Origin: an uncultured archaeon
Lineage (GTDB): Archaea > Aenigmatarchaeota > Aenigmatarchaeia > CG10238-14
NCBI GenBank assembly: GCA_964392445.1
Contig: CAYMPD010000016.1
Location: 9,858 to 26,495, forward strand
Length of the DNA: 16,638 nt
Reading direction: 5' to 3'
In this document: positions 699-16,638 of the stretch, piece after piece
Layout of the letters: the number at the start of each line of letters is the position of its first letter
Position numbering within the stretch: position 1 is the stretch's first letter
Position numbers and translations under genes: made by a program
Notes under the pieces: model-generated
Database searches by the model: none
Told to the model about the DNA's origin: nothing
The model's input: the letters and a program-made list of their open reading frames with translations, nothing else

Positions 699-944
699 AT
701 GAGACCTATTGAAGTTTCAAGTAATAAATCAAGGATATTTTTTAATACCGAAATTTATGACATGTATCCAATCACAAAGGTTTGTGAGAGATTTGAAGAT
801 GTAGTTAAAATTAAATTAAGGCTCCTTAGGGATGAAGGTTTAATAGAAATTACATTAAAACCGAAAAGTTCCGACGATCTAGAAAAAACTACTTATGAGT
901 TTTGTAATCATGTTCTACATGAACAGACCATGGTGTTAAAGTGA
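699..944 (+). CDS. hxsD: HxsD-like protein (short form, 81 aa)
   Basis: F-N-T-E-I-Y near the N-terminus and I-T-L-K-P-K...E-F-C-N-H-V-L near the C-terminus match the HxsD pattern and align by eye with 12090-12641 (INPKIY...IKPK...DFNNELL). Two genes upstream of hxsB. Confidence 0.7.
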   Translation: MRPIEVSSNKSRIFFNTEIYDMYPITKVCERFEDVVKIKLRLLRDEGLIEITLKPKSSDDLEKTTYEFCNHVLHEQTMVLK

Positions 945-987: not shown

Positions 988-1848
988 TTGGATAAGACAG
1001 AAAGTCCAGAGGTAACAATAAGTAATACAAAGAAAGCATTGAAAAAAGCCGGTTTGGAGGTTGATTTGACCGACATAACAAATCATTATTTTCTTGAGAT
1101 TCCGGCCTATACTTGTGATCTTGTCAAAGGGAATTTTCATGGTCCTGTGGGGGGGGGTTCAAGGAGTTGGGGTAAGGGACTCACTGAAGAAGAGGTAAAA
1201 GTAAGTACTTTAATGGAGTTTATCGAAAGGAGGACTGGGAACTTGTATTTTATTGATAAAGAAAATACAATTCAGTCTAGTGAAACCGTTTTTGATAGTT
1301 ATGTCAACATAAAGGAAAAAAAGCTCCCTCTCGATCCTTTGATTTATCATAGTGAAGCTAAAGAAGATTATAAAAAACTCCGTAGTCTTATTTCAAAAAG
1401 TAAAATGCGTTATACTAAGTATTATTCTTTGAATGAGGAGAAATGGAAGTTTTTGCCAGATAAATGGCACCTCTTTTTCCATGGAACTAATGGTTTGGCC
1501 GCGGGGAACACACTAGAAGAAGTTCTACTTCAGGCAATGTATGAAGTAATAGAGCGACATAACACAGCAAAAACACTTGAAATTCCTGTAAAAAGATTGG
1601 ATATAAATGATAAAGGTATGGAAATATTACAGGACGTCATGCGTAAGTTCAGTAGAAAGGGAATAAAGGTCAGTCTTTTTGATATTACAACTGATATAAA
1701 AATTCCTACTATCTATTGTGCTTTTTTAGATGAAAACGAGAAAGGACAATTAAGATACGCTCAAGGATGGGGTACGATACTTAATGAAATAGAAAAGTGC
1801 GTGCTCAAATTACAAAAAAGGGATATGAGGTTTTATTTAAGAATATAA
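988..1848 (+). CDS. ycaO: YcaO-family ATP-dependent peptide backbone-modifying enzyme, main ORF; appears internally deleted and frameshifted
   Basis: Motifs SWGKGLTEEEVKVSTLMEFIERR and GTNGLAAGNTLEEVLLQAMYEVIERH match YcaO signatures. The usual RAxxExxQ motif after G-x-G-T is absent. The last ~11 residues (RDMRFYLRI) look like out-of-frame tail. The start is a TTG and may not be the true start (see findings). Confidence 0.85.
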   Translation: MDKTESPEVTISNTKKALKKAGLEVDLTDITNHYFLEIPAYTCDLVKGNFHGPVGGGSRSWGKGLTEEEVKVSTLMEFIERRTGNLYFIDKENTIQSSETVFDSYVNIKEKKLPLDPLIYHSEAKEDYKKLRSLISKSKMRYTKYYSLNEEKWKFLPDKWHLFFHGTNGLAAGNTLEEVLLQAMYEVIERHNTAKTLEIPVKRLDINDKGMEILQDVMRKFSRKGIKVSLFDITTDIKIPTIYCAFLDENEKGQLRYAQGWGTILNEIEKCVLKLQKRDMRFYLRI

Positions 1849-2105: not shown

Positions 2106-3545
2106 ATGGCTTTTACCTATTCATCAGATTTTAAGGGTTATGTATTGAATAAGTATTCTAATATGAAATTAGATAAGGATAAAATTTTATTGACGACTAA
2201 TCACGGGGGTTGGGTAATTTTAGATAATGATGAGTTTGAACTTCTGAGGCATGGGAAAGTAGAAGAGGATATAAAATTATACAATCTCTTGAAACAGGAA
2301 GGCATAATAATGGGTGGAGATGAGATTGATAGAATATCTGGTTTTTATAAACAAAAATTAGCTCAATTGTCTACAGCTACAACATTGCATATAATTACTC
2401 CTACTTTGAGGTGTAATCATAAATGTGTTTATTGTTATGCAAAATCGAAACCTCCAGATGCTAAGGAATATGATATGGATGAAGATACTGCTAAAGAGGT
2501 AGTTGATTTTATTTTTCAATGCCCTTCTAAAGGCATCACTTTGGAATTTCAAGGTGGTGAACCATTATTGAATTATTCTATTATAAAATTCATCGTAGAT
2601 TATGCGAACAAATTAAACGAGGAGAAAAAGAAAAAAATAAATTTTAGATTAGTCACCAATTTAACCCTGATGGACGAAGAAAAGTTAGAATGGTTTGTGA
2701 ATAATGATATCGGCCTCCATACTTCACTTGATGGTCCTAAGGAGGTGCATAATAAGAATAGAAAATACTTAAGTGGTAAAGGAAGCTATGATATTGTCGT
2801 TGATTGGATTAAGAAATTGAAAGAGAAAAACATACATATTTCTTGTATGCCCACGGTAACCAAATATTCATTATCACACTGGAAGGATTTGATAGATGAA
2901 TATGTGAATTTGGGTTTAGATAATTTTTGGTTGAGGAAATTGAATGTAGGTGGATTTGCCGTAGATTATTGGGAAAAAATAGGTTACACTTCGGAAGAAT
3001 TTTTGAAATTTTGGAAGAAATCAATTGATTATATTTTCCAATTAAATAAAGAGGGCATAGTTATAATTGAGAATTCCTTAAGTATAATGCTGAGGAACAT
3101 ATTATTTTCAAAGAAATATAATCATTTTGTTTGTCTTACCTCACCTTGTGGTTGTGCTTGGGGACAAGTCAGTTATAACCATAAAGGGGATATATATACT
3201 TGTGACGAAGCAAGAAGTTTTGACGTTTTCAAATTAGGAAATGTTAAGGAAACTACTTATAAAGAATTATATTCTTCTTGGAAAGTGCTTGATATGGTAG
3301 ATTTAACAACGGGTTTATCTTTTGATTGCCAGTCCTGTGTTTATCATCCATTTTGTGGACCTTGTATAGTTGATGAGTATGGTGAGCATGGAAATATAAT
3401 CAAAAAACCCAATTCCTTTAATTGTAGAATAAAGAAAGGTATGTTAAGGTACATATTTGAGAAAATAATCTTAGATGAAGAGAAGTTTCAAATGGCTAAA
3501 GAGTGGGTTGGGTTGAAGAGTAAAAATATACCACATACACCTTAG
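2106..3545 (+). CDS. hxsB: His-Xaa-Ser system radical SAM/SPASM maturase HxsB (479 aa)
   Basis: LHIITPTLRCNHKCVYC (CxxxCxxC), ITLEFQGGEPLLN, TSLDGP...HNKNR, SPCG, YTCDEAR and a SPASM-type CQSCVYHPFCGPC...C. The N-terminal LLTTNHGGW extension is typical of HxsB. Context has HxsD-like and HxS-repeat genes. Confidence 0.88.
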   Translation: MAFTYSSDFKGYVLNKYSNMKLDKDKILLTTNHGGWVILDNDEFELLRHGKVEEDIKLYNLLKQEGIIMGGDEIDRISGFYKQKLAQLSTATTLHIITPTLRCNHKCVYCYAKSKPPDAKEYDMDEDTAKEVVDFIFQCPSKGITLEFQGGEPLLNYSIIKFIVDYANKLNEEKKKKINFRLVTNLTLMDEEKLEWFVNNDIGLHTSLDGPKEVHNKNRKYLSGKGSYDIVVDWIKKLKEKNIHISCMPTVTKYSLSHWKDLIDEYVNLGLDNFWLRKLNVGGFAVDYWEKIGYTSEEFLKFWKKSIDYIFQLNKEGIVIIENSLSIMLRNILFSKKYNHFVCLTSPCGCAWGQVSYNHKGDIYTCDEARSFDVFKLGNVKETTYKELYSSWKVLDMVDLTTGLSFDCQSCVYHPFCGPCIVDEYGEHGNIIKKPNSFNCRIKKGMLRYIFEKIILDEEKFQMAKEWVGLKSKNIPHTP

Positions 3546-4543
3546 TTTTTATTAGGGAATTTAATTACTCTATTAACCATTTTTTCATAAAAGTCATGCT
3601 TACCTTCATTTCTTAGATTTATTATTTTGTTTAGAAAGTCATCTAATGAGCGATTATCAATTATAGTATCTTTAATTTCTAAGTATTTTGGAATTGGGCC
3701 AGCTAGAATATCTAATAGATTCCCGTCATATTTCTCGTTTAGATAGAACCTAACTACGTCTTTTATCCATTCATTTGGCATTGTTCTACCAACAATTTTA
3801 AAATAATCTGTGATTTTCTTGTATTTCTTAAGATCTTCTGGTCTTATCCACCCTGATTTCAATATAGTACTTGGATTTCTCGCCCTTTCTCTAATACATA
3901 TTTCAGAAGCAAAATCTATGAAGTCTTCACTGGATCTTGAAAGATGAGAAGTATAGTTATTGTGTACAATTCTATAGGGACATTTCCACAAACAACCTTC
4001 ATTAACCATTAATCTAATTTTTAAGTTTGTCCCCTCTTTTATTTTTTTGAGCATATTGAAATCTCTATTAATATCATTAGGAACTATTGTCGTTGCTCCC
4101 AAATTTTCATAATATTTTGCTTTTTCTAATGAATCAATACAACAAAAAGCTGATGCTATGATTTCCATATCTTTAAATTCTTTTTTTGTTTTTTGTATGT
4201 AGAGAGGATTGGAAAAAATCGCCCCATTCACCCCAATTTTTCTCATTTTTTTAATAAAGTTTAAAGTTCTTGAAATGAAAGTTACATTATACCAGTCTAA
4301 ACCTTCACAGGTTGAGTTAAACGCCAAATCTACTTTGTAAGAGTATTTTTTACAGAATTTAATCACTTTTCTGATGTGGTCGGGATTTATTTTTTTTACA
4401 TCTCTCCCAGAACCGAATATATCCTGAGGAGCTGAAAGGTAAATCCCCTCTATTCTATTTTTTCCTCCTCTATTTAATTGAACTATCTTTTCCAAGGTTT
4501 CAAAATCATTGTTATATGGAATGGAAAAATTTAATTCGGGCAT
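3542..4543 (-). CDS. U32 peptidase-like family Fe-S protein, copy A (333 aa); candidate hydroxylase
   Basis: NSTC, DINRD, LMVNEGCLWKCPYRIVH, WIRPEDL and FKIVGR fit the U32 family with its Cys cluster and K-x-x-G-R motif. Its stop overlaps the hxsB stop by 4 nt (TTAG 3542-3545). Confidence 0.8.
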   Translation of the reverse strand: MPELNFSIPYNNDFETLEKIVQLNRGGKNRIEGIYLSAPQDIFGSGRDVKKINPDHIRKVIKFCKKYSYKVDLAFNSTCEGLDWYNVTFISRTLNFIKKMRKIGVNGAIFSNPLYIQKTKKEFKDMEIIASAFCCIDSLEKAKYYENLGATTIVPNDINRDFNMLKKIKEGTNLKIRLMVNEGCLWKCPYRIVHNNYTSHLSRSSEDFIDFASEICIRERARNPSTILKSGWIRPEDLKKYKKITDYFKIVGRTMPNEWIKDVVRFYLNEKYDGNLLDILAGPIPKYLEIKDTIIDNRSLDDFLNKIINLRNEGKHDFYEKMVNRVIKFPNKN

Positions 4544-4603: not shown

Positions 4604-5596
4604 ATGTCTGGTAGAATTGACCTTCAACTTGGATATTCTTGCAATAGTAATTGTATCCATTGTTTTAATTTGGATATTATTAGGGAATTAAGAGGTAGGG
4701 GTAAAAGCCTGGATAAAAGTATGAGTGAAATAAAAAAAATAATACTTAAAGCTAAGGAAGAAGGTATTGGGGAAGTGGTTCTAACAGGTGGTGAACCTAC
4801 TATCAGGAAAGACTTTTTGGAAATACTTAGGTTTATTAAGGAGAATGAATTTAAAATTAGTTTACAAACTAACGGGAGAATGTTTTCTTCGCAGGACTTT
4901 ACTAAAAAAGTTTCCTCGATAGCCCCAGATATAGGACTTTTGATACCCATTCATCATGTGAATCCTAAAATTCATGATTCGGTGACAAGAGTAAAGGGAT
5001 CTTGGGCTGAAACCATGAAAGGTATAAATTACCTCAAGAAATATGAAATTGATAATATCTTTTTCAAGACAATAATTTTAAAACAGAATTATAGAAATTT
5101 AATAGATATAACAGAATATGCCAATACAATTGGGATAAATAATATTGATTTTGCATTTTTGGAAGGTAGTGGTCGGGCTAGAAAGAATTGGTTTAAAATA
5201 GCCCCACATTATTCAGAAATAGCTCATCCACTAAAGGACTCAATAAAGCTTGGTAATAAATGGGGGATGAATATCAGTGTTTACGACGTCCCTTTTTGTT
5301 TTTTAAAAGGATTTGAGTCGCATATATCAGAGATAAAAAGTTATGTGATTCCATATTTAAGCGGAAATTTCCCGAAAAGAATATCATCAAGTAGGAGTGA
5401 TAATATAATTGAGGAACTTGTTTTAAAGAGGAGAAAGAAAATAGAAAAATGTACATCATGTAAGTATTTTAAGGTATGTCTTGGTGTATGGTCAGAATAC
5501 ATAGAGTTTTATGGAGGTAGTGAGTTTAAACCAGTTAAGGGTGAAAAAATAAGCAATATTAGAGATTTAAGAACTCTTTTAGAAGAATCAAATTAA
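4604..5596 (+). CDS. HxsC-like radical SAM protein, paralogue 1 (330 aa)
   Basis: GYSCNSNCIHC, LTGGEPTIR, QTNGRMF, HDSVTRVKGSW, LEGSGRARKN, VPFC and C-terminal CTSCKYFKVCLGVW...EFKP. Confidence 0.85.
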   Translation: MSGRIDLQLGYSCNSNCIHCFNLDIIRELRGRGKSLDKSMSEIKKIILKAKEEGIGEVVLTGGEPTIRKDFLEILRFIKENEFKISLQTNGRMFSSQDFTKKVSSIAPDIGLLIPIHHVNPKIHDSVTRVKGSWAETMKGINYLKKYEIDNIFFKTIILKQNYRNLIDITEYANTIGINNIDFAFLEGSGRARKNWFKIAPHYSEIAHPLKDSIKLGNKWGMNISVYDVPFCFLKGFESHISEIKSYVIPYLSGNFPKRISSSRSDNIIEELVLKRRKKIEKCTSCKYFKVCLGVWSEYIEFYGGSEFKPVKGEKISNIRDLRTLLEESN

Positions 5597-5639: not shown

Positions 5640-6605
5640 ATGAAATCAATGACTATGGTATTAGGTTATACATGTAATAATAATTGCATTTTTTGTATAT
5701 TTGGAGATCAGAAACATAAGGGTATAAGGAAAAGTGCAGAGGTAAAAAAAAGGCTAAAAGATATGAGGAAACAGACCTCTAGTATAAATTTTACAGGTGG
5801 TGATCTGACAATCAGGAAGGATTTTTTTGATATTTTGGATTTTGTAAAACAATTGAATTTCTCGGATGTTTCTATTGAAACTAACGGGAGAATGTTCTCT
5901 TCACGGATTTTTACTAAGCGTGTTTTAGCAATTTTCCCTAACATGAGATTTTCTATAAGTGTGTATCACATTAACCCTGAAATTCATGATTCAGTAACAA
6001 GGGTAAAAGGGTCTTGGGATCAGACTGTAAATGGGATAAAGAACATTATAAGCCATGAGAATAATAACATAACAATAGCTTTTGTTGTCGGGAAGTTCAA
6101 TTATAAAATATTACCTTCGGCTGTGGATTTTTTTTCTGATCTGGGAGTTCAAATTTTAGATTTTATTTTGATAAGAAAAGAAGGTGCTGCAAAAGATAAT
6201 TTCGATGATATTGGTGTAAGGATTAGTAAAGTTGTTCCATATTTAACCAAGGCTTTTGATAAGTTGGATAAAACCAATTTAACCGTGAGATCTTATGGAT
6301 TTCCTTTCTGTACTTTAAAGGGGTATGAAAGACATGTTCAAGAATTAGGGTTGATAGAGGCTACATTGGAGGGGCGGAAATCAATTTTCGATTTTGATGA
6401 TCACATTCAAGATCAATTTAGAGAAAGGTTAAGGGGGAGAAGATCTAAATTCAAGAAATGTATGAATTGTAAGTATTACAATATCTGTGAGGGGGTTTGG
6501 ACCCATTATGTTGAGACTTTTGGAAAGGACGAATTTAATCCAGTCCGTGGAGAGAAAATACAAACAAAGAACGAATTAGAGAAATTATTAAAGAACTCTA
6601 GATGA
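5640..6605 (+). CDS. HxsC-like radical SAM protein, paralogue 2 (321 aa)
   Basis: GYTCNNNCIFC, FTGGDLTIR, ETNGRMF, HDSVTRVKGSW, FPFC and CMNCKYYNICEGVW...EFNP. Confidence 0.85.
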   Translation: MKSMTMVLGYTCNNNCIFCIFGDQKHKGIRKSAEVKKRLKDMRKQTSSINFTGGDLTIRKDFFDILDFVKQLNFSDVSIETNGRMFSSRIFTKRVLAIFPNMRFSISVYHINPEIHDSVTRVKGSWDQTVNGIKNIISHENNNITIAFVVGKFNYKILPSAVDFFSDLGVQILDFILIRKEGAAKDNFDDIGVRISKVVPYLTKAFDKLDKTNLTVRSYGFPFCTLKGYERHVQELGLIEATLEGRKSIFDFDDHIQDQFRERLRGRRSKFKKCMNCKYYNICEGVWTHYVETFGKDEFNPVRGEKIQTKNELEKLLKNSR

Positions 6606-6607
6606 TT

Positions 6608-7555
6608 TTAAAATATCTCTTTTGCTAAATTATTACAATAATGGCACTTGGAACAATTTTTATCACAGCTGGTGACTTTATCAAAAAAATCATATGGAAC
6701 TTTTTTGAAGAACTCTGGCATAGAGTCATTTGTTTTCTCCATTAAATAACTTTTGGTTTGTTCTAATATGTTTTTTGTTGGTAATGTTCTACCTTCTATC
6801 TTAAAAAAATTAGTTATTTTCTTATATTTCTTAAGATCCTCTGGTCTTATCCAGGGTGATTTTAGTAATTGTGATGGATCTAGACTCTCTATTTTTCTAC
6901 ATATACCGAATGGATCAAATTCCTCTTCATAGCTTTCTATTGAATAATGAGAAGTGTAATTTTTATGAAATATTCTAAAAGGGCACCTGTAAAGACAAAC
7001 TTCATCTACAAGAAGTTTTAATTCACATCCAACTTCTTTAATGTTTTTTAATTTTTTTAGATTTCTATTAATATCTCTATCTGGAGTTATAGTGTCGGTA
7101 CCAAACTTTTTAAAAAATAAAGCTCTCTGAACAGAAGCTATCTCGGATATTACCGATGTTGTAATTTTTGTATCTGGACATTCTTGCCTAATTTTTTGGA
7201 GGTATAAAGGATTAGCTATGGTGACAGAATCTAATCCCTCTCTTCTCATTCTTTTAATGAAATTTACGGTTTTACTGACTCTAGTTGGTTCGTACCATTC
7301 TATACCTTCGCAAATTGAGTTCAAGATTAAGTTGACCTCTATACCATTATTATGACAAAATTTTATAACATCGATTAAGTCCTTTTTCGTGAATTTGGTT
7401 GTAACCCTACATGAACCAGAAATTTTTTGGGGGCCCGACAAATATATCTCTTTAATTTCATTCCCATTTATTTTTTTTACCTTTATGAGTTCTTCTAGTA
7501 GTTTGAAATCATTGTTATATGGGACAGACAAGTTTATATTTACCAAGTTGAACAC
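6608..7555 (-). CDS. U32 peptidase-like family Fe-S protein, copy B (~312-315 aa); candidate hydroxylase
   Basis: NSIC, DRDINRN, LLVDEVCLYRCPFRIFH, WIRPEDL, FKIEGR and a C-terminal CDKNCSKCHYC. The start may be TTG at 7546 rather than GTG 7555: it gives MVNINLSVPYNNDF, colinear with MPELNFSIPYNNDF of copy A, and is preceded by SD-like AGGTG. Confidence 0.8.
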   Translation of the reverse strand: MFNLVNINLSVPYNNDFKLLEELIKVKKINGNEIKEIYLSGPQKISGSCRVTTKFTKKDLIDVIKFCHNNGIEVNLILNSICEGIEWYEPTRVSKTVNFIKRMRREGLDSVTIANPLYLQKIRQECPDTKITTSVISEIASVQRALFFKKFGTDTITPDRDINRNLKKLKNIKEVGCELKLLVDEVCLYRCPFRIFHKNYTSHYSIESYEEEFDPFGICRKIESLDPSQLLKSPWIRPEDLKKYKKITNFFKIEGRTLPTKNILEQTKSYLMEKTNDSMPEFFKKVPYDFFDKVTSCDKNCSKCHYCNNLAKEIF

Positions 7556-7688: not shown

Positions 7689-8765
7689 TTGAGAATGGTT
7701 GACATGTTAGAACACTTCACTGCCTTAGATTTGGTAAGAATTTCTATTTTTACTATTTTTGGTTCTATCATTTCTTATTATGATATTAAAGAAAAGAAAA
7801 TATATAATAAGCATCTATTAGTCATGTTTATTTTAGGGCTTGTTTTATTTTTTGCTGGCCTTAAATTTTTCTTAATACCAGTTTTTCTAATAAATTTCTT
7901 TCTTTCTCTTTTTTTTGGATTCTTGTTTTGGAAAATGAAAATTTGGAAACCAGGTGATGCTAAACTATTTTCTATATGCTCGATATATTTACCGTTTAAG
8001 TTCTATTCTTCTTTTATAACTTCTCAAATTATTCTGACGAATTTATTCTTAGTGGCGTTCTTTGTATGGGTTATACCTGTTTTAATAAGGACAGATAAAA
8101 ATGCAAAAAAAAAGTCTATTAAACAGGTTTTCAATATAAAGAATATATTTGAGGTATTTTTAACTATTTTCGGTTTATTTTATTTCATAGGACAATTTTT
8201 CACTCTTTTTGACCTTAATTTAATGTACGAATTTGGATATTTCATTACTTTACTTTTTACTTTTTTTCTTTTTGTATTGATTAAGAAGATTTTGCCAGAT
8301 AAAACATTTTATTTTCTGTTATTCTTAACTATAATTAGGTTTTTTGTAGATCCTTCAATATTTGAAATAAATTTTTGGCTGGATTCTTTCTTGAGTATGA
8401 TGGTTATTTTAATTGCTTCTTGGATTGGAGAAATAGCTTATTATATATCTTATGAGAAAAAGAAGGTATCTAATTTGGAAGAAGGGGATATCCCAGTTGG
8501 TTTTGTTACAGAGGGAAAGAGATTAAGAGATTTTGAGAAGTTTATCGAACAAAATTTTGATAATAAAGAAAGAATATTAGAAGATGGTTTAAATGATAAG
8601 GAAATTGGCAAGATCAATAATTTTGAAAGGATAAAATTTATGTTTGTTAAAGAATATATAAGCTTTGCACCATGGTTAATATTATCAACAATTCTGGCAT
8701 CTGTATTGGGTACAGATATTTTCCTATTTTTCATATCCCAGATTTATAGGAGATTTTATGAATGA
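7689..8765 (+). CDS. A24-family (prepilin/preflagellin, FlaK/PibD-like) intramembrane aspartic peptidase
   Basis: Multi-pass membrane protein with first catalytic-Asp motif SYYDIKEKKIYN (D32), second motif WKPGDAKL (D90), a soluble C-terminal insert VSNLEEGDIP and a terminal ISFAPWL helix. The likely start is ATG 7695 or 7704 rather than TTG 7689. Confidence 0.8.
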   Translation: MRMVDMLEHFTALDLVRISIFTIFGSIISYYDIKEKKIYNKHLLVMFILGLVLFFAGLKFFLIPVFLINFFLSLFFGFLFWKMKIWKPGDAKLFSICSIYLPFKFYSSFITSQIILTNLFLVAFFVWVIPVLIRTDKNAKKKSIKQVFNIKNIFEVFLTIFGLFYFIGQFFTLFDLNLMYEFGYFITLLFTFFLFVLIKKILPDKTFYFLLFLTIIRFFVDPSIFEINFWLDSFLSMMVILIASWIGEIAYYISYEKKKVSNLEEGDIPVGFVTEGKRLRDFEKFIEQNFDNKERILEDGLNDKEIGKINNFERIKFMFVKEYISFAPWLILSTILASVLGTDIFLFFISQIYRRFYE

Positions 8766-10617
8766 TCGGTTTCAAACTAAGTATATATTGGTAATTCTAG
8801 TGGTGGGAATCACCATATCTTCCCTTATTTTGCGATCACCTATGAAAATAGGTGATCATATTTTCGAAAAATTAAGTTCCACCTGGCCTATGTTCAGAGG
8901 TGATATATACAGGACAGGGAATTTTGATGGTCTACAAATTGATGAATTTCCTATTTTGATGGATTATGATAAGAGCTGTAAAGATTGTTTAATCTTCAAA
9001 ATTTATGGTAATATAATGGAAAATGAAAGTAAAATAACTGCAAACTTTTCTATAGGGAGAAAAATGAGTTCTATTGCTAAGAAAGTCCCTTTAAATTTAA
9101 GTAGATCTAAGATCGAAGATGAGATAGTCACAATTCAAGTGATAAGATATCAAATATCTGATAAAAACATACTAAAGCCTGAGAAATGGGGTAATTATAT
9201 AATGGACTTTCAGAATGGGTCGGGAACAAGAGAACTCTACTTCCATGAAGGGGAGTATTTTAGTGTGTCACTGGATTTCTTAAATTTTATAGAAGAATCC
9301 GGTTTTCAGGAAAAAGATAATTTTATATTGTCTGACAATGGATTTGACTTTTGGATTTTTGATGGAAGAATTGAAAATAATTTAGATAAAAAATACTTGC
9401 TGGGGAAACCGGATGAAGATTATTTGGATGAAGATTCCATATCTTTATCAAGATCTTCGTCTCGTTTACAAATGCTCACTATTGGGAGTCAAGCTAACGA
9501 GAAAAATAAACAGGATTTTTTTTCAGACGATAATGTTTTTGACCCTTCCCCGATTTTCATAGATTTGAATTCAGATGGTAATGATGAAATAATAACCTAT
9601 TTCAAAAATACTGTTTATAATAATACACAGAAGACCAGAACTTGGGAAGATATGATACTGGCGATTGAATATAAAGAAAATCCAACTCTAATGGAAAGTT
9701 TGGAATTCGGTAATGTCCCTTATATAATGAGTTGGAGATTCATATTATCCGATGAAGTACATACTTCTTTTTCGGCTGGGGATATCAGTTTGGATGGGTC
9801 CCCGGAAATTATTTTCGGCTCTGACGATGGGAATTTATATGTTTTAGATAATAATGGAAATTTGAGATGGAAATTTGACTCTCGGGGAAAAATTAGAAGT
9901 ACCCCCGCAATAGGTGATCTCGATTTTGATAATAAATATGAAATTATTTTCGGCTCTGACGATGGGAATCTATATGTTTTAGACAATAAAGGAAATTTGA
10001 AATGGAAATTTGAGACAGAAAGTATTATAAGATCGAGCCCATTATTTTTTTTGGAAAATTCATCTTCTATAATTACTTTCGGTTCTGACGACGGAAATTT
10101 ATACCTTCTAGATAATAGGGGAAATTTAAGATGTAAGTATGAAACTAGCGGTAAAATAAGAAGCTCCCCTCTGTATTACAATGGAAGTATAATTTTCGGT
10201 TCTGACGACGGTAATATTTATATATTAAACACGGAATGCAACTTAATTAAAAAATATAGAACTAATGATATGGTAAGAAGCTCCCCCTCGTTATTTAATG
10301 GCGAATTTACTATTGGATCAAAAGATGGTAATATTTATTATTTTGATTATAATCAGATTACTAAAAGAATGTTAAATGCGTCGATAATATCAATTCCTGT
10401 GGTTTTAGGGAGCAAATCTTTAGTTTCTACTATTGAGGGGGACATATATTTAATTAATTCCAGATCTGATGAATTACTATTAGATTTGGAAAATGTAAAT
10501 AATTTTTCTTGTTCACCTGCTCTGGGAAAAGTGGAAGAGGGGATAGTATTTTCTTGTTTTTTTATTAAGGAGAGTGCTGATACTAAATATTCGGGTTTTT
10601 TTATTCATACTATATAA
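8758..10617 (+). CDS. Membrane-anchored PQQ-like/FG-GAP beta-propeller repeat protein (619 aa)
   Basis: N-terminal hydrophobic helix (YILVILVVGITISSLIL), WPMFRGDIYRTG motif, five FGSDDGNLY-type blades with RS[ST]P ends, and Ca-binding-like loops DLNSDGNDE, DISLDGSPE, DLDFDNKYE. Overlaps the upstream gene by 8 nt and the downstream gene by 1 nt (TAATG). Confidence 0.8.
   Translation: MNDRFQTKYILVILVVGITISSLILRSPMKIGDHIFEKLSSTWPMFRGDIYRTGNFDGLQIDEFPILMDYDKSCKDCLIFKIYGNIMENESKITANFSIGRKMSSIAKKVPLNLSRSKIEDEIVTIQVIRYQISDKNILKPEKWGNYIMDFQNGSGTRELYFHEGEYFSVSLDFLNFIEESGFQEKDNFILSDNGFDFWIFDGRIENNLDKKYLLGKPDEDYLDEDSISLSRSSSRLQMLTIGSQANEKNKQDFFSDDNVFDPSPIFIDLNSDGNDEIITYFKNTVYNNTQKTRTWEDMILAIEYKENPTLMESLEFGNVPYIMSWRFILSDEVHTSFSAGDISLDGSPEIIFGSDDGNLYVLDNNGNLRWKFDSRGKIRSTPAIGDLDFDNKYEIIFGSDDGNLYVLDNKGNLKWKFETESIIRSSPLFFLENSSSIITFGSDDGNLYLLDNRGNLRCKYETSGKIRSSPLYYNGSIIFGSDDGNIYILNTECNLIKKYRTNDMVRSSPSLFNGEFTIGSKDGNIYYFDYNQITKRMLNASIISIPVVLGSKSLVSTIEGDIYLINSRSDELLLDLENVNNFSCSPALGKVEEGIVFSCFFIKESADTKYSGFFIHTI
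9805..10013 (+). repeat. Intragenic direct repeat: two 74-bp copies (9805-9878 and 9940-10013), 135-bp period, encoding propeller blades
   Basis: The first 30 bp (gaaattattttcggctctgacgatgggaat) are identical and there are 4 mismatches over 74 bp by manual comparison. Confidence 0.9.
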
Positions 10618-11600
10618 TGGGAAGGATTATGGAAGTTGAGGGCTTGAATGTAAATTTTGGACATTCCTGTAATAATAATTGTATTCATTGTTTAATAGGA
10701 CAAGAAATGAGGACAAAATATAGAGACCGGACTACAGAAGAAATCAAAGAACTTCTTTTAGAGGCCAGTAAAAAGACAAATTACACTATATTTATAGGAG
10801 GGGAAGCTACACTAAGAAGGGATTTTTTAGAATTACTTGAATTTGCAAAAAGTTTAGGATTGAATATACATTTAGAAACAAATGGTAGAATGTTTTCTAT
10901 AAAAAGTTTTGCGAGGAGAGTATTTCAAATAGATCCTAATCTTGATATTGTGATGAGTTTTCATCACACTTGCCCTAATATACAGGACAAAATCACGGGT
11001 GTTAAGGGCTCTTTTAAACAAAGTGTTAAAGGTATGGAAAATATCAGAAAATTTGGAAAAGGAGGAGATGGGGAATTAGGAGTGATTTGTGTCATTACTA
11101 AATTAAATTATAAAAACCTATCAGAACTTGTAACTTTTTTGAATAGTAAAAGTATTGATCAATTAGATTTTACTTTAATGAGAATTGGGGGAGACGCTCT
11201 TGAAAATTTTGATAAAATATTTGTTCCAATAAAGGAGATTCAGCCTTACTTGTTTGAGGCTATAAAAAAATCAAGGAAATTGGATATAAGAACAAAAACC
11301 TATGGCTTTCCTTTCTGTACCATAAAAGGGTATGAAAAGTATGCGGTTGAAGTTGGTTTTATTGAAAGTTTGATTAAGAAAAAGAAGTTTGTATTTTGGG
11401 AGTTAAATGAAAGAATTGAGTGGCATAAAACGAGATTAGAGATAAAAACCAAATTATCTAGGTGCCTAGACTGTAAATATTATAATATCTGTGAAGGTCT
11501 TTGGAAAGAATATATGTTATTGGAACCTGAAATATTAAAACCAATTAAAGGTAGAAGATTGAAAAGCCAGAAAGAGACATCGAAATTACTTGGAAAGTGA
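10617..11600 (+). CDS. HxsC-like radical SAM protein, paralogue 3 (327 aa)
   Basis: GHSCNNNCIHC, FIGGEATLR, ETNGRMF, QDKITGVKGSF, FPFC and CLDCKYYNICEGLW...LKP. Confidence 0.85.
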   Translation: MGRIMEVEGLNVNFGHSCNNNCIHCLIGQEMRTKYRDRTTEEIKELLLEASKKTNYTIFIGGEATLRRDFLELLEFAKSLGLNIHLETNGRMFSIKSFARRVFQIDPNLDIVMSFHHTCPNIQDKITGVKGSFKQSVKGMENIRKFGKGGDGELGVICVITKLNYKNLSELVTFLNSKSIDQLDFTLMRIGGDALENFDKIFVPIKEIQPYLFEAIKKSRKLDIRTKTYGFPFCTIKGYEKYAVEVGFIESLIKKKKFVFWELNERIEWHKTRLEIKTKLSRCLDCKYYNICEGLWKEYMLLEPEILKPIKGRRLKSQKETSKLLGK

Positions 11601-11617
11601 TAAAATCCAATCTTACA

Positions 11618-12010
11618 TCAACCGTAATTTAGTACAATATAGTTCTTATGACTAGCATTGGCACTTCTATGGTTGTTTCCATGTCCCCATCCAGCAGACC
11701 CACTACCAGAATTGCCACTACCATGATTACTTGCGTCACAATGGCTAGCTGGAACACCATCAGCTGATGAATGCGCTTCAGAGCTCCAATGCCCCCACCC
11801 ACCCCTCGTACCACTATTATGCGCTTCCGAATGCCCCGGATCACAATGATCATGTTTAGAAGAAATATCAGCGCCCATACCTTTTGAGAACAGATTCAAT
11901 GCTTCAAATCCAGCAAACATTGCACCCATGGAAATCAACGCTTGCTTTGAAGCACCCCCTGATTCTCCAAGTATGAATGATTTTAATTCTTTTTTTATTT
12001 TGGGTAACAT
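11618..12010 (-). CDS. hxsA: His-Xaa-Ser repeat precursor peptide (HxsA-like, ~130 aa)
   Basis: Basic leader and hydrophobic segment, then a G/S/H-rich core with 11 His, including HNS, HWS, HSS, HGS, HRS, HGN, HKN and two HCD. The ORF track starts at TTG 12031. ATG 12010 (MLPKIKK) is preferred because minus-strand TTTATTAA (12035-12042) ends 24 nt upstream; ATG 12019 is also possible. Confidence 0.8.
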   Translation of the reverse strand: MLPKIKKELKSFILGESGGASKQALISMGAMFAGFEALNLFSKGMGADISSKHDHCDPGHSEAHNSGTRGGWGHWSSEAHSSADGVPASHCDASNHGSGNSGSGSAGWGHGNNHRSANASHKNYIVLNYG

Positions 12011-12089
12011 ACTATACATAATTATATTCAATTATTAATAAATTTATCTAGGTAATAATATTTGCAGGTAGGAATTGGAGGTTCATTGA
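12011..12089. promoter_or_regulatory. Divergent promoter region between the precursor and hxsD2, with SD for hxsD2
   Basis: Minus-strand TATA-like TTTATTAA at 12035-12042. Plus-strand GGAGGT at 12077-12082, 7 nt before ATG 12090. Confidence 0.55.
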
Positions 12090-12641
12090 ATGAAAGAAGC
12101 TAAAAAAATAGATGTAAATAAAACTAAAAATGAAGTTATAATCAAAATAAATCCGAAAATATATCCCTTACCAATAGTTTATCAAACATCTGATGTTTTC
12201 ATAGATAAATCATATGTTTTCCTGGATGGTGATCCCGAAGAGGAAATAGAAGTAATGATAAAACCCAAAGAGAAAGGAGTTGATTTAAAAAAGATAGCTG
12301 GTGATTTCAATAATGAATTATTGAATTATTCTGCATATTTCATAAGATCTCAAATGAACAAAGACTTCAGACATATTATATTGGAGAAAGCACTTTCTAC
12401 TGTAGAGAGGGGAGGTAGCAAGATAAAAGAAAAAACTCAGGAAAAGCAAAAGATAGACATAGGACTTAAAGTTCCGTTGTATAAAGCAGAAGAATCCTCC
12501 GAAAATAGAGCTGACAATGAAGAATTCGATGAGGATGAAATAAGAAAAGTCTGGGAAGAACAAAAAGGTGCAATAAAAGATAAGTCTAAAAGAACTAAAA
12601 CCAAGGCCAACAAAGAGGACAGCAATGAAAAGAAAGATTAA
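12090..12641 (+). CDS. hxsD: HxsD-like protein (long form, 183 aa, charged C-terminal tail)
   Basis: INPKIYPL...DKSYVFLDGDPEEEIEVMIKPK...DFNNELLNY...IILEKAL fits HxsD. The acidic/basic tail contains EIRKVWEE. Adjacent to the precursor and overlapping the next radical SAM gene by 17 nt. Confidence 0.8.
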   Translation: MKEAKKIDVNKTKNEVIIKINPKIYPLPIVYQTSDVFIDKSYVFLDGDPEEEIEVMIKPKEKGVDLKKIAGDFNNELLNYSAYFIRSQMNKDFRHIILEKALSTVERGGSKIKEKTQEKQKIDIGLKVPLYKAEESSENRADNEEFDEDEIRKVWEEQKGAIKDKSKRTKTKANKEDSNEKKD

Positions 12642-13623
12642 TAAAGTCGATATAAAATTTGGCTACTCCTGTAATAATAATTGTATACATTGTGTAGTGG
12701 CTGGTCACAAAGAAAGACTTAAAGAAAATAATCTATCGATAGATAGGACAACTAAGGAAATCAAAAAAATTATTTCTGAAGTTAAAGAAAGAGGAGCTAA
12801 CTCCCTCGTGTTCACCGGAGGAGAAGTCACAATACGAGAGGATTTTTTAGATCTATTGAAATACACTAAAAATCTAGATTTAATTATAGGGCTACAGACG
12901 AATGGGAGAATGTTTCATAAAAAGAGTTTTGTTAAAAAAACTTTAAAAATAGCTCCAGATATGCATTTCGAAATCGCTCTTCATTCTGATAAAGAGGAGA
13001 ATCATGATAAAATAACTAAAACTAAAGGTTCTTGGAAACAAACAATAGAGGGTATTAAAAATCTTAAGAGGAATGGAGTCACTAAACTGAATCTGAAGAT
13101 AGTTATTTCGAGATTGAATTATAAAGATTTAGTAGGTATAGTTGAACTTTCAGATAAATTAAATGTAAAACAAATAGATATAGCTTTTCCCCATGGAATG
13201 GGTAATGCTTTGAGAAATTGGCAGGATGTGATCCCAAAGTATAATGAGATAATGGAATATATATTGAAAGCAATAGAATTAGCGAATGAAAAAGATATAT
13301 TTATTAGTTTGGAGGCGGTCCCTTTTTGTTTCTTGGTAGGTTTTGAAAGACATGTTAGTGAGCTAAGATATCTTCATGATTCTTTAGAGGGAAATATCTC
13401 AGAATTAATGCAAATAGGTGACCCAACTTGTGACTGGCATAAGGTAAGATGTAATATTAAGAATAAAACAATAGATTGTAAGGACTGTAAATATTTTTAT
13501 ATATGTGAAGGTGTTTGGGAAGAATATATTGAATTACATGGATCAAAAGAACTTAAACCAGTTAAAGGTAAAAAAATAAGAACTAAAGCTGACTTACAAG
13601 ATATTATTAAGAAATCTAAATGA
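12625..13623 (+). CDS. hxsC: HxsC-like radical SAM protein, paralogue 4 (332 aa), coupled to hxsD
   Basis: GYSCNNNCIHC, FTGGEVTIR, QTNGRMF, HDKITKTKGSW, HGMGNALRN, VPFC and CKDCKYFYICEGVW...ELKP. GAGGA precedes the start inside the hxsD 3' end. Confidence 0.82.
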   Translation: MKRKINKVDIKFGYSCNNNCIHCVVAGHKERLKENNLSIDRTTKEIKKIISEVKERGANSLVFTGGEVTIREDFLDLLKYTKNLDLIIGLQTNGRMFHKKSFVKKTLKIAPDMHFEIALHSDKEENHDKITKTKGSWKQTIEGIKNLKRNGVTKLNLKIVISRLNYKDLVGIVELSDKLNVKQIDIAFPHGMGNALRNWQDVIPKYNEIMEYILKAIELANEKDIFISLEAVPFCFLVGFERHVSELRYLHDSLEGNISELMQIGDPTCDWHKVRCNIKNKTIDCKDCKYFYICEGVWEEYIELHGSKELKPVKGKKIRTKADLQDIIKKSK

Positions 13624-13667: not shown

Positions 13668-14750
13668 ATGAAAAACGAAATTAGAGTTATGAATCTAAAA
13701 AATGCATCTAGCCTAAATAAGATGTTGAGTTTATTTATAATATTTTTCATGTTAGTTCTAGTATCCAATCAAATATTTGCTCAAGAATGTGGTGATGGGA
13801 GTGGGAGTGATTGCGATACTACCTGTTATGTTTCAGTAAATTTACATGAGGGGTATTCTAGTGAGACTAGCCCCTCTGGTACAAACTTTACCTCTATTCA
13901 TTCTTCAACATCTGGCTCCTGTAGTGATACTAGTGCCTATAGTTTTACATTCGATTTAGATGACCAAGAAACAAACTGGGATAATAGATTATGTTATGGG
14001 TTCAGTGATTCAGCTTATTTTTATGCTTATGGGATAGAAGACGATTATGATTCTACCGACTATCAATTTTTATTCAATACCTCTGAAGTTTCATGTAATG
14101 ACGCTTTAAACATTACCTTCAGAAATTCTACTTCACATGTAACTCAAAATGGAAAAGTCACAGTATACGAAGCAGGTACATCTACTATACTGGGCTGGGG
14201 AAATACAACTGAGACAGGTCAAGTCGTATTTGGTTTGAATAGTACCAAAATATATGATTTCAAAATAGAGACTGATGAATATCAACAAAATATATGGTTT
14301 AGGAATGCAAGAGTCCCTGATACAATAGATGTTTCAGAAAACAAAAAATGGGTTCCAGAATCTACAACAGCTGCCAATAAGAAATTCACAGCAGGTCATA
14401 TCGTACCCACAGAGATGCATATTCTTGCTCCCTATGGAAAATACCCAATAGAAAACATAAGTATAGATAATCCACTTCCAGCAAATATAACTTTTGCGGG
14501 AAATGTAGTTGTTGAAAAACATACTTCAAGTGGGACCTCTACATGTGATAAAATACCAGATTCTTCGACGAGCTTTCTTATTGATAAAACCGACTGTGCA
14601 TTTTTATCTTCTTTGAATGTCACGGATCATGAGTGGTTGAGGGTACATTACAGAATCAAGTTGGCTGGTCCTGAGGCCTATTCAAGTGTAGGTGAAGAAA
14701 AAAATTATACCTTAAATGCAGCTGTATTGAGATTTGATGTCCCAATTTGA
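13668..14750 (+). CDS. Secreted/cell-surface glycoprotein-like protein (360 aa) with a possible DUF11-like C-terminal domain
   Basis: Signal-peptide-like MLSLFIIFFMLVLVSNQIFA. The mature part has 8 Cys and 10 N-x-S/T sequons. ISIDNPLPANITF resembles the DUF11-type D-x-L-P motif. The start may be a downstream ATG. Confidence 0.7.
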   Translation: MKNEIRVMNLKNASSLNKMLSLFIIFFMLVLVSNQIFAQECGDGSGSDCDTTCYVSVNLHEGYSSETSPSGTNFTSIHSSTSGSCSDTSAYSFTFDLDDQETNWDNRLCYGFSDSAYFYAYGIEDDYDSTDYQFLFNTSEVSCNDALNITFRNSTSHVTQNGKVTVYEAGTSTILGWGNTTETGQVVFGLNSTKIYDFKIETDEYQQNIWFRNARVPDTIDVSENKKWVPESTTAANKKFTAGHIVPTEMHILAPYGKYPIENISIDNPLPANITFAGNVVVEKHTSSGTSTCDKIPDSSTSFLIDKTDCAFLSSLNVTDHEWLRVHYRIKLAGPEAYSSVGEEKNYTLNAAVLRFDVPI

Positions 14751-14956
14751 TAGTTGAAAAAAAATTCTAACTTGTTCAAAACAAATTTCTTTTGATTTGT
14801 TCTATAATTTATTTAATCGGGAATTTCTAAAATAATATCTAACTAACTGGGGGATGGGATATAAATTAGACACGATTTTATTAATTTTAATTATTTAGTT
14901 CTGTCAACTTTTTCATATTCATTATTGTCTCTTCTAAACTTCATATTCTTTCTTTT

Positions 14957-15011
14957 TTCAGGAGGTCGTGTCAAACCCATCCCCCGGGTTCGACCTTCTG
15001 AATTTTCTTTT
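14957..15011 (+). terminator. GC-rich hairpin followed by a U-rich tract; terminator/attenuator-like, upstream of the large surface protein
   Basis: ttcaggaggtcg (14957-14968) pairs with cgaccttctgaa (14991-15002): 12 bp including one G.U. Inner aaccc/gggtt stem, 5-nt bulge, 7-nt loop, then ttttctttt. Confidence 0.45.
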
Positions 15012-15035
15012 AAATCCAACATAAATTTCAAAGGA

Positions 15036-16638
15036 ATGGTTATTTTCTTAATTCTCTTCTTGTTTTCAGTTGGTGCTCTTTCCAGTTTAGCTCAATCTGA
15101 TTTAGAGATGATTCAGAAAAAAGAGTATGAACCAGAGATTTTGGGTGATACATGGACTAAAAAAATCATGATATTCACAGAAGGGGATAAGCAATATTTT
15201 GATGTTCCTGTAGTTGTTAGTGTCCCTGAAGATTATGGGAATTTTGAGCTGTATAAAATTTTTGATGAGAATTCTTTTCAAAAGATATCTGAAAAGGAAA
15301 TTTACGAATTTATGAAAATAGATCAAGATGGGAATGGAAAAATAGACCATGTTTCATGGGTCGTGCCTTCAGTTGGTGAAGAAACTTTCTTGATAGAATC
15401 ATTAGAAGAAGAAATCCCAACTAAAGTAGACTCTACCGTTATAACGACTATAAAAACCACGACGCAATCTACAATCTTAACTACACCGACCACCCTTCAA
15501 ACAACAACTATTACCACTGGGACATCTAAAACCTTTACAACACAAAATATAACTCACTCGGTTTCTACAACAACTTCTTCGGTAAAATCTACGATATCTG
15601 ATCAAAAATCAACAATAGAAAGCAAGACTAGATTAACTACAACCTCTACAATGGAATCGGATTACGAGGAAAAGGAAATTGAGAAGATATATGCACAAGA
15701 TTGGGATTTAATACAGGGTGATATAGAAGTTGGAGAAACTGTTAAGTGGGAGAAATCTATAAATATCGAAAATATTGAGGAGGATAAAGTTAATAAAAAA
15801 ATTGAATTAGAACTTCCTCAGGGGGCTGAAAATGTTCAAATAAAGGAAGAGGTAGATTTACTTGTGGGACTTAAGTGGAGAAAAAAAATAGGTTCAGAAA
15901 TCAATTTAGATAAAATTTCGGATAAATTGCTACTGATTGAATTTTATGATGAATTTAATCCACTAGAGAAGAAAAAATATATACTTAATTTCAGGACCCA
16001 GGCTCCAGAAAAATTAGAAATTTATACTGAACAGACTGAAGAAAAATGGCTAAAAAAAGTTAAGATAACAAGTGATGCTTATGTACATTATCAAAACGTT
16101 ATTTCTTATGCTGATATAATGGAATCTAAAAAAGAGCAGATTCATTTATATTGGATGAAAGATGGTGAAAAACAGGATGTTGCCAATGATCCTAAATTTG
16201 ATGTACAATTTATTGACACTAATGCCAATTCTTTAGTAGATAAATTAAGGTGGGTAGTACCTGAATTATCCGAACAAGAATTTTTAATTGAAATTGATTT
16301 AACTGTTATTAATGTTCAGTCCTACCCTGTGGTAGGAGGAAACTGGACGGTAGAATTTAATACCACGGGCACTGCGGATTTAGTTATATGGGGTATCGAT
16401 GGGACTACCTTTTCGGAAAAATTATTTGATGATCCTTTGACAAAAGATGATCTTAATATTATGAGTGTTTTTTGTGGTGAAAAAGAGTTGGAGGACCAAT
16501 ATTACATTTTAGAATCTTTAAAAAAGGAAAATGATAACTTTTCCAACCAAACCACAACAACACTCCAAGAAAACATAACCTTAAACCAAACCACAACAAC
16601 ACTCCAAGAAAACATAACCTTAAACCAAACCACAACAA
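15036..16638 (+). CDS. Large secreted/surface protein, >=534 aa, runs off the right edge
   Basis: Hand translation from ATG 15036 (preceded by AAGGA) is stop-free to the end. It shows signal peptide MVIFLILFLFSVGALSSLA, a Thr/Ser-rich linker, two copies of an 82-aa domain and terminal NQTTTTLQENITL repeats. The frame is open back to 14865, so an upstream TTG (14925) cannot be excluded. Confidence 0.85.
   Translation, partial: MVIFLILFLFSVGALSSLAQSDLEMIQKKEYEPEILGDTWTKKIMIFTEGDKQYFDVPVVVSVPEDYGNFELYKIFDENSFQKISEKEIYEFMKIDQDGNGKIDHVSWVVPSVGEETFLIESLEEEIPTKVDSTVITTIKTTTQSTILTTPTTLQTTTITTGTSKTFTTQNITHSVSTTTSSVKSTISDQKSTIESKTRLTTTSTMESDYEEKEIEKIYAQDWDLIQGDIEVGETVKWEKSINIENIEEDKVNKKIELELPQGAENVQIKEEVDLLVGLKWRKKIGSEINLDKISDKLLLIEFYDEFNPLEKKKYILNFRTQAPEKLEIYTEQTEEKWLKKVKITSDAYVHYQNVISYADIMESKKEQIHLYWMKDGEKQDVANDPKFDVQFIDTNANSLVDKLRWVVPELSEQEFLIEIDLTVINVQSYPVVGGNWTVEFNTTGTADLVIWGIDGTTFSEKLFDDPLTKDDLNIMSVFCGEKELEDQYYILESLKKENDNFSNQTTTTLQENITLNQTTTTLQENITLNQTTT
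16545..16638 (+). repeat. 39-bp perfect tandem repeat (2 full copies plus 16 nt), encoding NQTTTTLQENITL
   Basis: aaccaaaccacaacaacactccaagaaaacataacctta at 16545-16583 and 16584-16622, with a partial copy at 16623-16638. Confidence 0.95.

Follow-up and report, generated by a model that had tools for sequence, protein, structure and literature searches.

An HxsA3-like candidate precursor with conserved His-x-[Ser/Asn/Asp] triads in an expanded Hxs radical SAM cluster of a DPANN archaeon

What do radical S-adenosylmethionine (SAM) peptide maturases read in a short, His-rich protein encoded among them in an archaeal genome? This question is raised by a stretch of 16,638 nucleotides (the window; contig CAYMPD010000016.1, positions 9,858 to 26,495) from an uncultured archaeon of the Aenigmatarchaeota, in which a small gene on the minus strand (11618–12019, stop codon 11618–11620) encodes a protein of 133 residues, 71 of which (H56 to N126; 11642–11854) form a core rich in His. 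On balance, the sequence comparisons described here incline us to place this core in an HxsA3-like precursor of an expanded Hxs (His-Xaa-Ser) radical SAM system in a DPANN archaeon, a tiny symbiont. We hold it very probable that radical SAM enzymes modify the peptide, and likely that HxsB-type chemistry takes place at its His-x-[Ser/Asn/Asp] triads.

Translated from the ATG at 12019, the protein opens with a conserved basic leader, LPKIKKELKSFILxExGGAS (residues 1–24; 11948–12019), which includes E19 and G21; an alternative ATG at 12010 would give a product beginning MLPKIKK, the start type of several homologues. The leader is followed by a hydrophobic helix, read from the sequence and kept in the homologue alignment (residues 27–48; 11876–11941), which could serve either as a membrane anchor, as a pilin-like N-terminal helix or as the H-region of a signal peptide. 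Beyond the core lies a C-terminal tail, YIVLNYG (11621–11641), in which Y132 is invariant.

Minus-strand translation of the core gives 14 Ser, 13 Gly, 11 His, 8 Ala, 7 Asn, 4 Asp, 3 Trp and 2 Cys, and bears out the inventory made in a preliminary description of this DNA: nine H-x-[S/N/D] triads, comprising five HxS (HNS, HWS, HSS, HGS and HRS), two HxN (HGN and HKN) and two HxD (both HCD), with an HDH and an HSE besides. The core starts with the motif HDHCD (H56 D57 H58 C59 D60; 11840–11854), in which the HDH and HCD triads overlap, and continues with H63 (11831–11833), a conserved His column that reads HSE in the window copy, with HNS in a variable, lineage-specific segment (residues 67–69; 11813–11821), with HWS after the first GGWG (77–79; 11783–11791) and with HSS as part of a conserved HSSADGVP block (83–85; 11765–11773). 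Further along are the second HCD, which is SHC[S/N/D] across the family (93–95; 11735–11743), HGS (99–101; 11717–11725), a segment of the form GWGH-GN-N-HRS (11663–11683) that places HGN (113–115) and HRS (117–119) after the second GW, and finally HKN (124–126; 11642–11650). When the same 71 residues were shuffled 100,000 times, H-x-[SND] triads arose with a mean of 3.8, against the nine observed (P(≥9) = 8.4e-4); for HxS alone, P was 0.03. The enrichment was confined to offset +2, with only 2–5 such pairs at other offsets.

Is this pattern conserved, or peculiar to one sequence? A word-indexed search returned 27 close homologues (107–133 aa, 48–64% identity, E 3e-38 to 5e-19), all of them metagenomic, the named ones being DPANN, Aenigmarchaeota or 'Nanobdellati' archaea. 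Their alignment retains the conserved basic leader LPKIKKELKSFILEEKGGASKQ, the hydrophobic stretch, the core and the tail YVYLNYG, and yields the core consensus HDHCDPGHxS...GGW...HSSADGVPxSHCSxHxS..GGWxHxSxNxAHKN, with both GGW motifs and the Tyr-containing tail conserved. The spacing of the triads, on which the preliminary description had made its proposal depend, is conserved in the homologues.

Column by column, across the 27 aligned sequences, none departs from H56, D57, H58 or D60 and 24 have C59, the residue two positions after H58 (+2) being Asp in all 27. The His of the H83, H93 and H124 columns is also found in every sequence, with a +2 residue of Ser in 25 and Asn in 2 at H83 (where +1 is Ser in 26 of 27), of Ser in 23, Asn in 3 and Asp in 1 at H93, and of Asn in 25 and Ser in 2 at H124 (where +1 is Lys in 21). 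His is present in 25 of 27 at H63 (+2 Ser 22, Asn 2 and Glu 1, the Glu being that of the window) and at H99 (+2 Ser 20, Asn 5), and in 21 of 27 at H117 (+2 Ser 18, Asn 3). The middle residue, by comparison, varies freely at four of the seven conserved triads.

Pooled over 30 family members, the +2 residue is Ser, Asn or Asp for 231 of 263 core His, and 30 more are the first His of the invariant HDH (overall Ser 57%, Asn 19%, Asp 12% and, from HDH, His 11%), counts that overstate independence because the homologues share ancestry. The sole rule-breaker among the core His of the family is the window's own HSE at H63, and Thr, Ala and Gly never occupy +2. His in variable columns carry Ser (20) or Asn (4) at +2, the one other that was counted, with Leu at +2, being in the leader; the rule therefore holds for newly acquired triads as well. 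A reading of the conserved Asn and Ser as archaeal N-glycosylation sequons (N-x-S/T) was rejected on inspection of the sequences, in which these residues are out of sequon register.

We next consider how far the rule extends beyond the close family. A family profile run against 1.84 billion representative proteins found 55 proteins, most of which are short peptides with a leader of the form [IL]PKIKKxxxxFxxxEEGxISKQSL, a hydrophobic stretch and a His-rich core that is often a tandem HxS array with an aromatic final residue. Among 37 of these distant relatives scanned against NCBIfam, 35 matched HxsA3 (best E 1.7e-28), 13 HxsA4 and 4 HxsA; in the leaders of the 37, P6 and E19 are invariant and G21 nearly so, and this leader type is common to the HxsA3/HxsA4-matching peptides and to a second Hxs locus of the source genome. 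The window peptide itself reaches 21.1 bits with HxsA3 (NF038309; E 1.9e-4, residues 5–86), under the cut-off of 65, and it stays below the curated cut-offs of the HxsA-type models considered (TIGR03979, NF038296, NF038309 and NF038313). Judged by these matches, it is a divergent HxsA3-like precursor and no member by curated threshold.

With each distinct triad counted once per protein, the +2 residue in the distant relatives exceeds expectation for Ser (2.5x) and Asn (3.3x) and falls below it for Asp (0.7x), Gly (0.24x) and Thr (0.17x, against a background of 7.5%). The preliminary description had proposed that the unit is H-x-[S/N/D] and not just HxS; this holds in the wider family for Asn, which like Ser is enriched, whereas Asp is enriched at +2 only in the window family's invariant HCD. 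Ser, Asn, Asp and His have an unbranched β-methylene, which Thr lacks, so that the depletion of Thr at +2 agrees with a reaction on a Cβ that is unbranched, and we would regard this depletion as the most informative feature of the +2 statistics.

The distant relatives differ among themselves in ways that touch other parts of the peptide. The motif HNHSD, related to HDHCD, is seen in them. Many HxsA3-like peptides (P0036, P0038, P0044, P0055, P0057–P0059, P0063 and P0081) end in an aromatic residue right after the last triad (..HxSY, ..SGW); the window family ends instead in the conserved KNYVYLNYG with its invariant Tyr, a tail that may be a C-terminal recognition or cross-link element. In L019 (7059–8366, minus strand), and also in P0042, HxsA3-type leaders are fused to long tandem Hint/intein-like C-terminal regions (C..GT.VL..DG ... 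HN), which suggests that the leader system handles cargo besides His arrays. Precursor-type leaders are also joined to Thr/Cys-rich (CTT repeats) or Thr-Ser-Thr cores with few His, in L024 (3013–3390, minus strand), L034 (4104–5741, plus strand) and L018 (8708–9301, minus strand), and these peptides adjoin HxsB, HxsD and A24 genes.

The preliminary description had also ascribed a duplicated architecture to the core. The motifs GWGH, SEAH, HCD and ASH each do occur twice, as read directly in the sequence, and the duplication is real in the window copy, where local alignment of residues 58–92 with 93–133 scores 65, against 36 ± 6 for shuffled sequences (0 of 2000 shuffles reached 65); it is weaker family-wide, the self-alignment signal being positive in all 30 members with a median z of 2.1 and a z above 3 in 9 of 30. 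The order common to both halves is HC[D/S] - HxS - GGW - HxS, twice. An exact-spacing pattern, HC[DSN]xxHx[SND] twice, was tried and discarded, as it fails in most homologues, where the spacing in the second half is 1–2 residues shorter. SEAH x2 and GWGH x2 are largely peculiar to the window copy, and the two SEAH are encoded by a 12-nucleotide direct repeat (11 of 12 identical; 11771–11782 and 11819–11830, 48 nucleotides apart) in a segment of which most homologues have a shorter version. This repeat suggests a recent local duplication of 16 codons, by which the extra triads of the window (HNS and HWS) and its lone HSE probably arose.

Two further views of the gene added little. An overlapping open reading frame (ORF) in another frame (11629–11853, minus strand, 74 codons) reads as hydrophobic nonsense without support and was set aside. 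An AlphaFold 2 model of the precursor from 27 sequences has a mean predicted local distance difference test (pLDDT) score of 52.6, with the core below 50, and was treated as uninformative, serving neither as evidence nor for a fold search. At this low confidence it contains a helix at residues 25–48, two N-terminal helices in all, and pairs residues 50–57 (11852–11872) with 125–132 (11621–11644) as strands (pLDDT about 45–55), a predicted pairing that, with low confidence, would close the His-rich core into a loop.

Which enzymes might act on the triads? In keeping with the radical SAM chemistry put forward in the preliminary description, radical SAM peptide maturases surround the precursor gene. 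The radical SAM/SPASM maturase HxsB is encoded at 2106–3545 (plus strand; TIGR03978 437 bits, cut-off 370), and four HxsC-like radical SAM proteins lie on the same strand at 4604–5596 (HxsC-like 1; HxsC4 139 bits and HxsC 126 bits, both below cut-offs), 5640–6605 (HxsC-like 2), 10617–11600 (HxsC-like 3, convergent with the precursor gene) and 12625–13623 (HxsC-like 4). Among the models used for these families (TIGR03977 and NF038332 for HxsC, TIGR03976 and NF038315 for HxsD), HxsC matches the four HxsC-like proteins at 100–126 bits against a cut-off of 268; these, like the HxsD match given below, are best hits that stay under their cut-offs. The Cx3Cx2C motif is intact in all five radical SAM proteins; the SPASM cysteines are kept in HxsB, and four more Cys occur in every HxsC-like protein. 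A small HxsD-related protein, HxsD_rel, is encoded at 699–944 (plus strand; NF038315 47.9 bits, cut-off 41) and an HxsD-like protein at 12090–12641 (plus strand; TIGR03976 38 bits, cut-off 50).

The remaining members of this cluster of at least 13 genes include two U32-family proteins on the minus strand (a, 3542–4543, and b, 6608–7555; both PF01136), a β-propeller protein (8758–10617, plus strand; Pfam propeller families) and a short YcaO-domain protein of 286 aa between HxsD_rel and HxsB (988–1848, plus strand; PF02624). A counterpart of the latter was not found in the syntenic locus L010, and the YcaO protein is therefore no fixed part of the system. A membrane protein of the prepilin-peptidase-like A24 family is encoded at 7689–8765 (plus strand; PF01478 31.5 bits, cut-off 26.5). 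Paired catalytic Asp are the aspartic-peptidase signature of A24 proteins, and here D32 (YDIKxxKIxN) and D90 (PGDAKLF) are invariant in 16 orthologues (the window and L009–L034); the A24 protein is likely, on this pattern, to be the leader peptidase. Downstream of HxsC-like 4, the ORFs at 13668–14750 and 14925–16637 have no family match; the 360-aa downstream ORF is weakly related (35% identity over 130 aa) to one that lies about 5.6 kb away from the precursor gene in another genome, G026 (L037). PADLOC 2023, which is without an Hxs model, gave just generic viperin-level radical SAM matches on the window.

Related loci show which parts recur. The source genome (1.2 Mb, 34% G+C, 94.9% complete) has a second Hxs locus on contig C26 (L001), with genes at 2–166, 209–1642 and 1757–2432 on the minus strand and 2476–3090 on the plus strand; its leader-bearing precursor, MVKLPKIKKKVSGFLL..., is cut by the contig end after about 55 aa, and the locus also holds HxsB (445 bits), two small HxsD-like ORFs and a polytopic membrane protein. 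The window's precursor type occurs in an equivalent expanded cluster in two further genomes. L010 (isolate KA24) contains three HxsC-like genes, the propeller, A24, at least one U32 gene (another ORF is an unconfirmed candidate), HxsB, HxsD_rel and HxsD, and in G026 the precursor adjoins the propeller and the orthologue of HxsC-like 3; on a short fourth contig, L009, it is found with the propeller and A24. Across 24 archaeal Hxs loci, U32 and propeller homologues occur only in those with the window's precursor family, an A24-like protein is encoded along with HxsB in 16, and the recurrent core consists of HxsB, HxsD, an A24-like protein and a leader-bearing precursor. Within the phylum of the source genome, HxsB passes its cut-off in 26 of the 301 genomes sampled, and in 15 among the 98 of high quality.

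HxsC, by comparison, is not always found. A search at E ≤ 1e-10 found no HxsC-like gene in G073 (90% complete), and the sole match in G070 (41 bits; C1, 9002–9517, minus strand), directly beside HxsB, contains an in-frame TAG and may be a decayed HxsC. As HxsC-like genes are not found throughout, these genomes point to a tie between the triads and HxsB, with the HxsC paralogues as add-ons, an assignment that is suggestive, the genomes being incomplete.

How does this system compare with those already described? The His-Xaa-Ser system was predicted in silico by Haft and Basu, as cited in PMC9062424. Li et al. (Nat Commun 2026, PMC13128918) described it as an anti-phage system, HxsD-HxsB-HxsC-HxsA, of E. 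coli and Klebsiella. The defence, which is widespread among enterobacteria, keeps phage DNA from entering E. coli, and 99.7% of HXS systems fell in Pseudomonadota in an HxsA-based survey (PMC13128918); our literature search found no paper on archaeal Hxs systems. The window resembles E. coli HXS in its enzyme families, in a His-x-Ser protein that would be N-terminally processed and exported, in its predicted radical SAM maturation and in a triad whose His and Ser are, by the E. coli data, essential. Unlike the four-gene E. coli operon, the archaeal cluster has its genes in a different order and contains extra families, and its substrate has 133 aa and no detected Pfam domain. Bacterial HXS is also without an A24 partner, whereas archaeal loci often have one.

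A further likeness is to the systems of the NCBIfam families HxsA3 and HxsA4 (NF038309 and NF038313), whose peptides share with that of the window a basic leader, a hydrophobic stretch and a His-rich core; the HxsB (TIGR03978) and HxsD_rel (NF038315) proteins of the cluster exceed their cut-offs. In contrast to these families, the window peptide has dispersed, position-specific triads with no tandem HxS array, uses Asn and Asp at fixed triads, and is marked by its invariant HDHCD and SHC[S], two GGW and the KNY..LNYG tail; its cluster differs from theirs in the four sub-cut-off HxsC-like paralogues and in the added U32 pair, propeller and YcaO proteins. The N-terminus also recalls the class III signal peptides of type IV pilins and Flp-like proteins, with a basic leader, a near-invariant G21 before a hydrophobic helix and an A24 protein with both Asp, but 4–5 polar residues (A-S-K-Q) separate G21 from the helix, and there is neither a pilin globular domain in the peptide nor a set of pilus assembly genes in the window. 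An alternative signal-peptidase-like site, I-S-[AS], precedes KHDH.

The chemistry that might be performed on the triads is less readily assigned. In His-based triceptides, formed by HaaB (HAA), YhhB (HNR) and HtkB (HTK), His C2 is joined to the Cβ of the third residue with a loss of 2 Da each (PMC11499958). The window peptide is like such precursors in having several motifs of an aromatic residue, any residue and a residue with an abstractable Cβ hydrogen, together with a SPASM radical SAM maturase, and unlike them in carrying an export or anchor segment with an A24 partner. The interpretation in the preliminary description is borne out in part: it has the triad unit and the class of enzyme right, and His-based cyclophanes are established (PMC11499958), but HxsB, below the triceptide-synthase cut-offs, is no recognised triceptide synthase. 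We regard a link from the imidazole to the +2 Cβ as a tentative possibility. Several observations weigh against it, or against the wider reading of the core, in addition to the sub-threshold HxsA3 match and the shared ancestry of the pooled counts given above. The third residue is Ser, Asn or Asp here and Ala, Arg or Lys in the His triceptides; HxsB scores just 80.5 bits with YhhB (cut-off 445), 90.4 with GrrM/OscB (310) and 90.1 with AmcB (425); and it scores higher on thioether formers than on cyclophane-synthase families. Among other maturases HxsB reaches 165 bits with PapB, 147 with nif11 maturases, 134 with DynA, 130 with CcpM, 129 with QhpD and 128 with SCIFF, and its nearest solved structures are CteB and anSME, with the triceptide synthase ChlB matching weakly (46 bits) in the radical SAM core; NCBIfam scores of HxsB cannot separate C-C, C-N and C-S bond formers, and we drew no reaction type from them. 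Moreover, the mass data for Hxs peptides come from E. coli only, and the sole measured Hxs modification, on the SHRSS of E. coli HxsA, is a gain of 8.0 Da (+C −4H) and not a loss of 2 Da (PMC13128918).

That measurement, the only experimental result for an Hxs substrate, is the mainstay of a different explanation, in which the triads would undergo the change known from E. coli HxsA (+C −4H, in S-H-x-S-S-like contexts), one that takes several steps and is no simple cyclophane, with HxsC/HxsD acting at the site and HxsB in a second step, to give a charged surface effector. Defence is lost when the His of SHRSS or one of the Ser beside it is mutated, and equally when any one HxS repeat is, and the mass change maps to SHRSS, results that also favour the triads as modified units in general; HxsC and HxsD, moreover, form a complex in pull-downs (PMC13128918); the window, for its part, has four HxsC-like and two HxsD-like genes. 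Against this, the structure of the +8 Da product is unsolved, in vitro reconstitution failed and, of the five repeats in E. coli, a single one was found to carry the modification (PMC13128918), the window's HxsC-like proteins are far under the HxsC cut-off, and G073 and G070 possess HxsB, HxsD and HxS arrays without a convincing HxsC. We consider an E. coli-type change to be unlikely here, and note that +8 Da equals +12 −4, which by our own arithmetic, and not as evidence, would allow for two oxidative couplings and a bridge of one carbon. The similarity of HxsB to thioether formers (PapB, CcpM, QhpD and SCIFF, and CteB by structure) would instead suit a peptide whose main targets are its two conserved Cys, in thioethers of the sacti- or ranthipeptide kind (for instance Cys sulfur to an Asp, Ser or Asn carbon), or its Trp and Tyr, the His triads being unmodified metal ligands or recognition elements. 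C59 and C94 each stand within H-C-[D/S], and the GGW pair and the Tyr tail, which would supply the aromatic targets, are conserved.

The Cys nevertheless come and go within the family. C94 is absent in four sequences, and in three of these C59 is lost along with it, a co-loss that suggests the two act as a pair and separately from the triads, perhaps in a disulfide, in paired thioethers or at a metal site that they share; all four retain every triad. Most of the distant HxsA3-like cores, moreover, have no conserved Cys and always H-x-S/N arrays. Being dispensable in relatives, the Cys are therefore not the general target of HxsB, although they could be a target of the family-specific extra enzymes, and we hold Cys or aromatic residues to be distinctly unlikely as the main site of modification. 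The core might also be an unmodified, or merely proteolysed, His/Cys-rich peptide that binds metal or acts at the surface, its triad pattern reflecting coordination or turn geometry. Its 11 His and 2 Cys in 71 residues, and the resemblance of HDHCDPGH to metal-binding motifs, as judged from the sequence, fit such a role, and Ser, Asn and Asp can hydrogen-bond imidazole. Thr, on the other hand, could replace Ser in that capacity and is strongly depleted at +2; the peptide is encoded with five intact radical SAM genes, in a cluster conserved in three genomes; and its leader is homologous to those of HxsB-associated HxsA3 peptides. An unmodified core thus appears highly improbable. The preliminary description had further supposed that uncrosslinked His could bind metal, and metal binding by free His is pure inference.

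Returning to the triads as the modified units, we propose the following course of events. The basic leader (LPKIKK...ExG) would be the recognition handle for the cytoplasmic HxsB/HxsD machinery, and radical SAM enzymes would modify the core before export. What these enzymes would read is a triad of His, any residue, and a small residue with an unbranched, heteroatom-bearing β-carbon (Ser or Asn; Asp in HCD), at which HxsB may take a hydrogen from the +2 Cβ and couple the resulting radical to the imidazole of that triad, yielding a three-residue His macrocycle. The four HxsC-like paralogues, the U32 proteins and the propeller might add site- or family-specific steps at the Cys pair, the GGW motifs and the Tyr-rich tail. 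The A24-type aspartic peptidase would then cut the leader at the near-invariant G21, or a signal peptidase would cut before K55, and the hydrophobic helix could carry or anchor the His-rich core outside the cell. By analogy only, the product may have its role at the cell surface, where it could hinder viruses from entering in the manner of E. coli HxsA. Taken as one scheme, in which Hxs chemistry joins imidazole to an unbranched Cβ and the DPANN peptide bears 7–9 fixed His macrocycles and HxsC/U32 family-specific modifications on a pilin-like exported scaffold freed by a dedicated A24 protein, the proposal is doubtful.

The precursor family nonetheless amounts to a natural 'mutagenesis' set, in which a restricted +2 and a free middle residue show what the enzymes read, and the +2 restriction points to the β-carbon of the third residue, constraining Hxs chemistry. 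A peptide of 133 aa, with triads that are fixed and distinguishable and with paralogous enzymes that can be added singly, also makes a better substrate than E. coli HxsA, which is insoluble. In one DPANN phylum, systems of the HxsB type are common, as the genome counts above indicate, versus the almost exclusive assignment to Pseudomonadota in the HxsA-based survey. If the triads do become imidazole-Cβ macrocycles, the window's peptide would represent an undescribed archaeal class of ribosomally synthesised and post-translationally modified peptides or proteins, and it would reveal the modification that underlies anti-phage defence by bacterial HXS.

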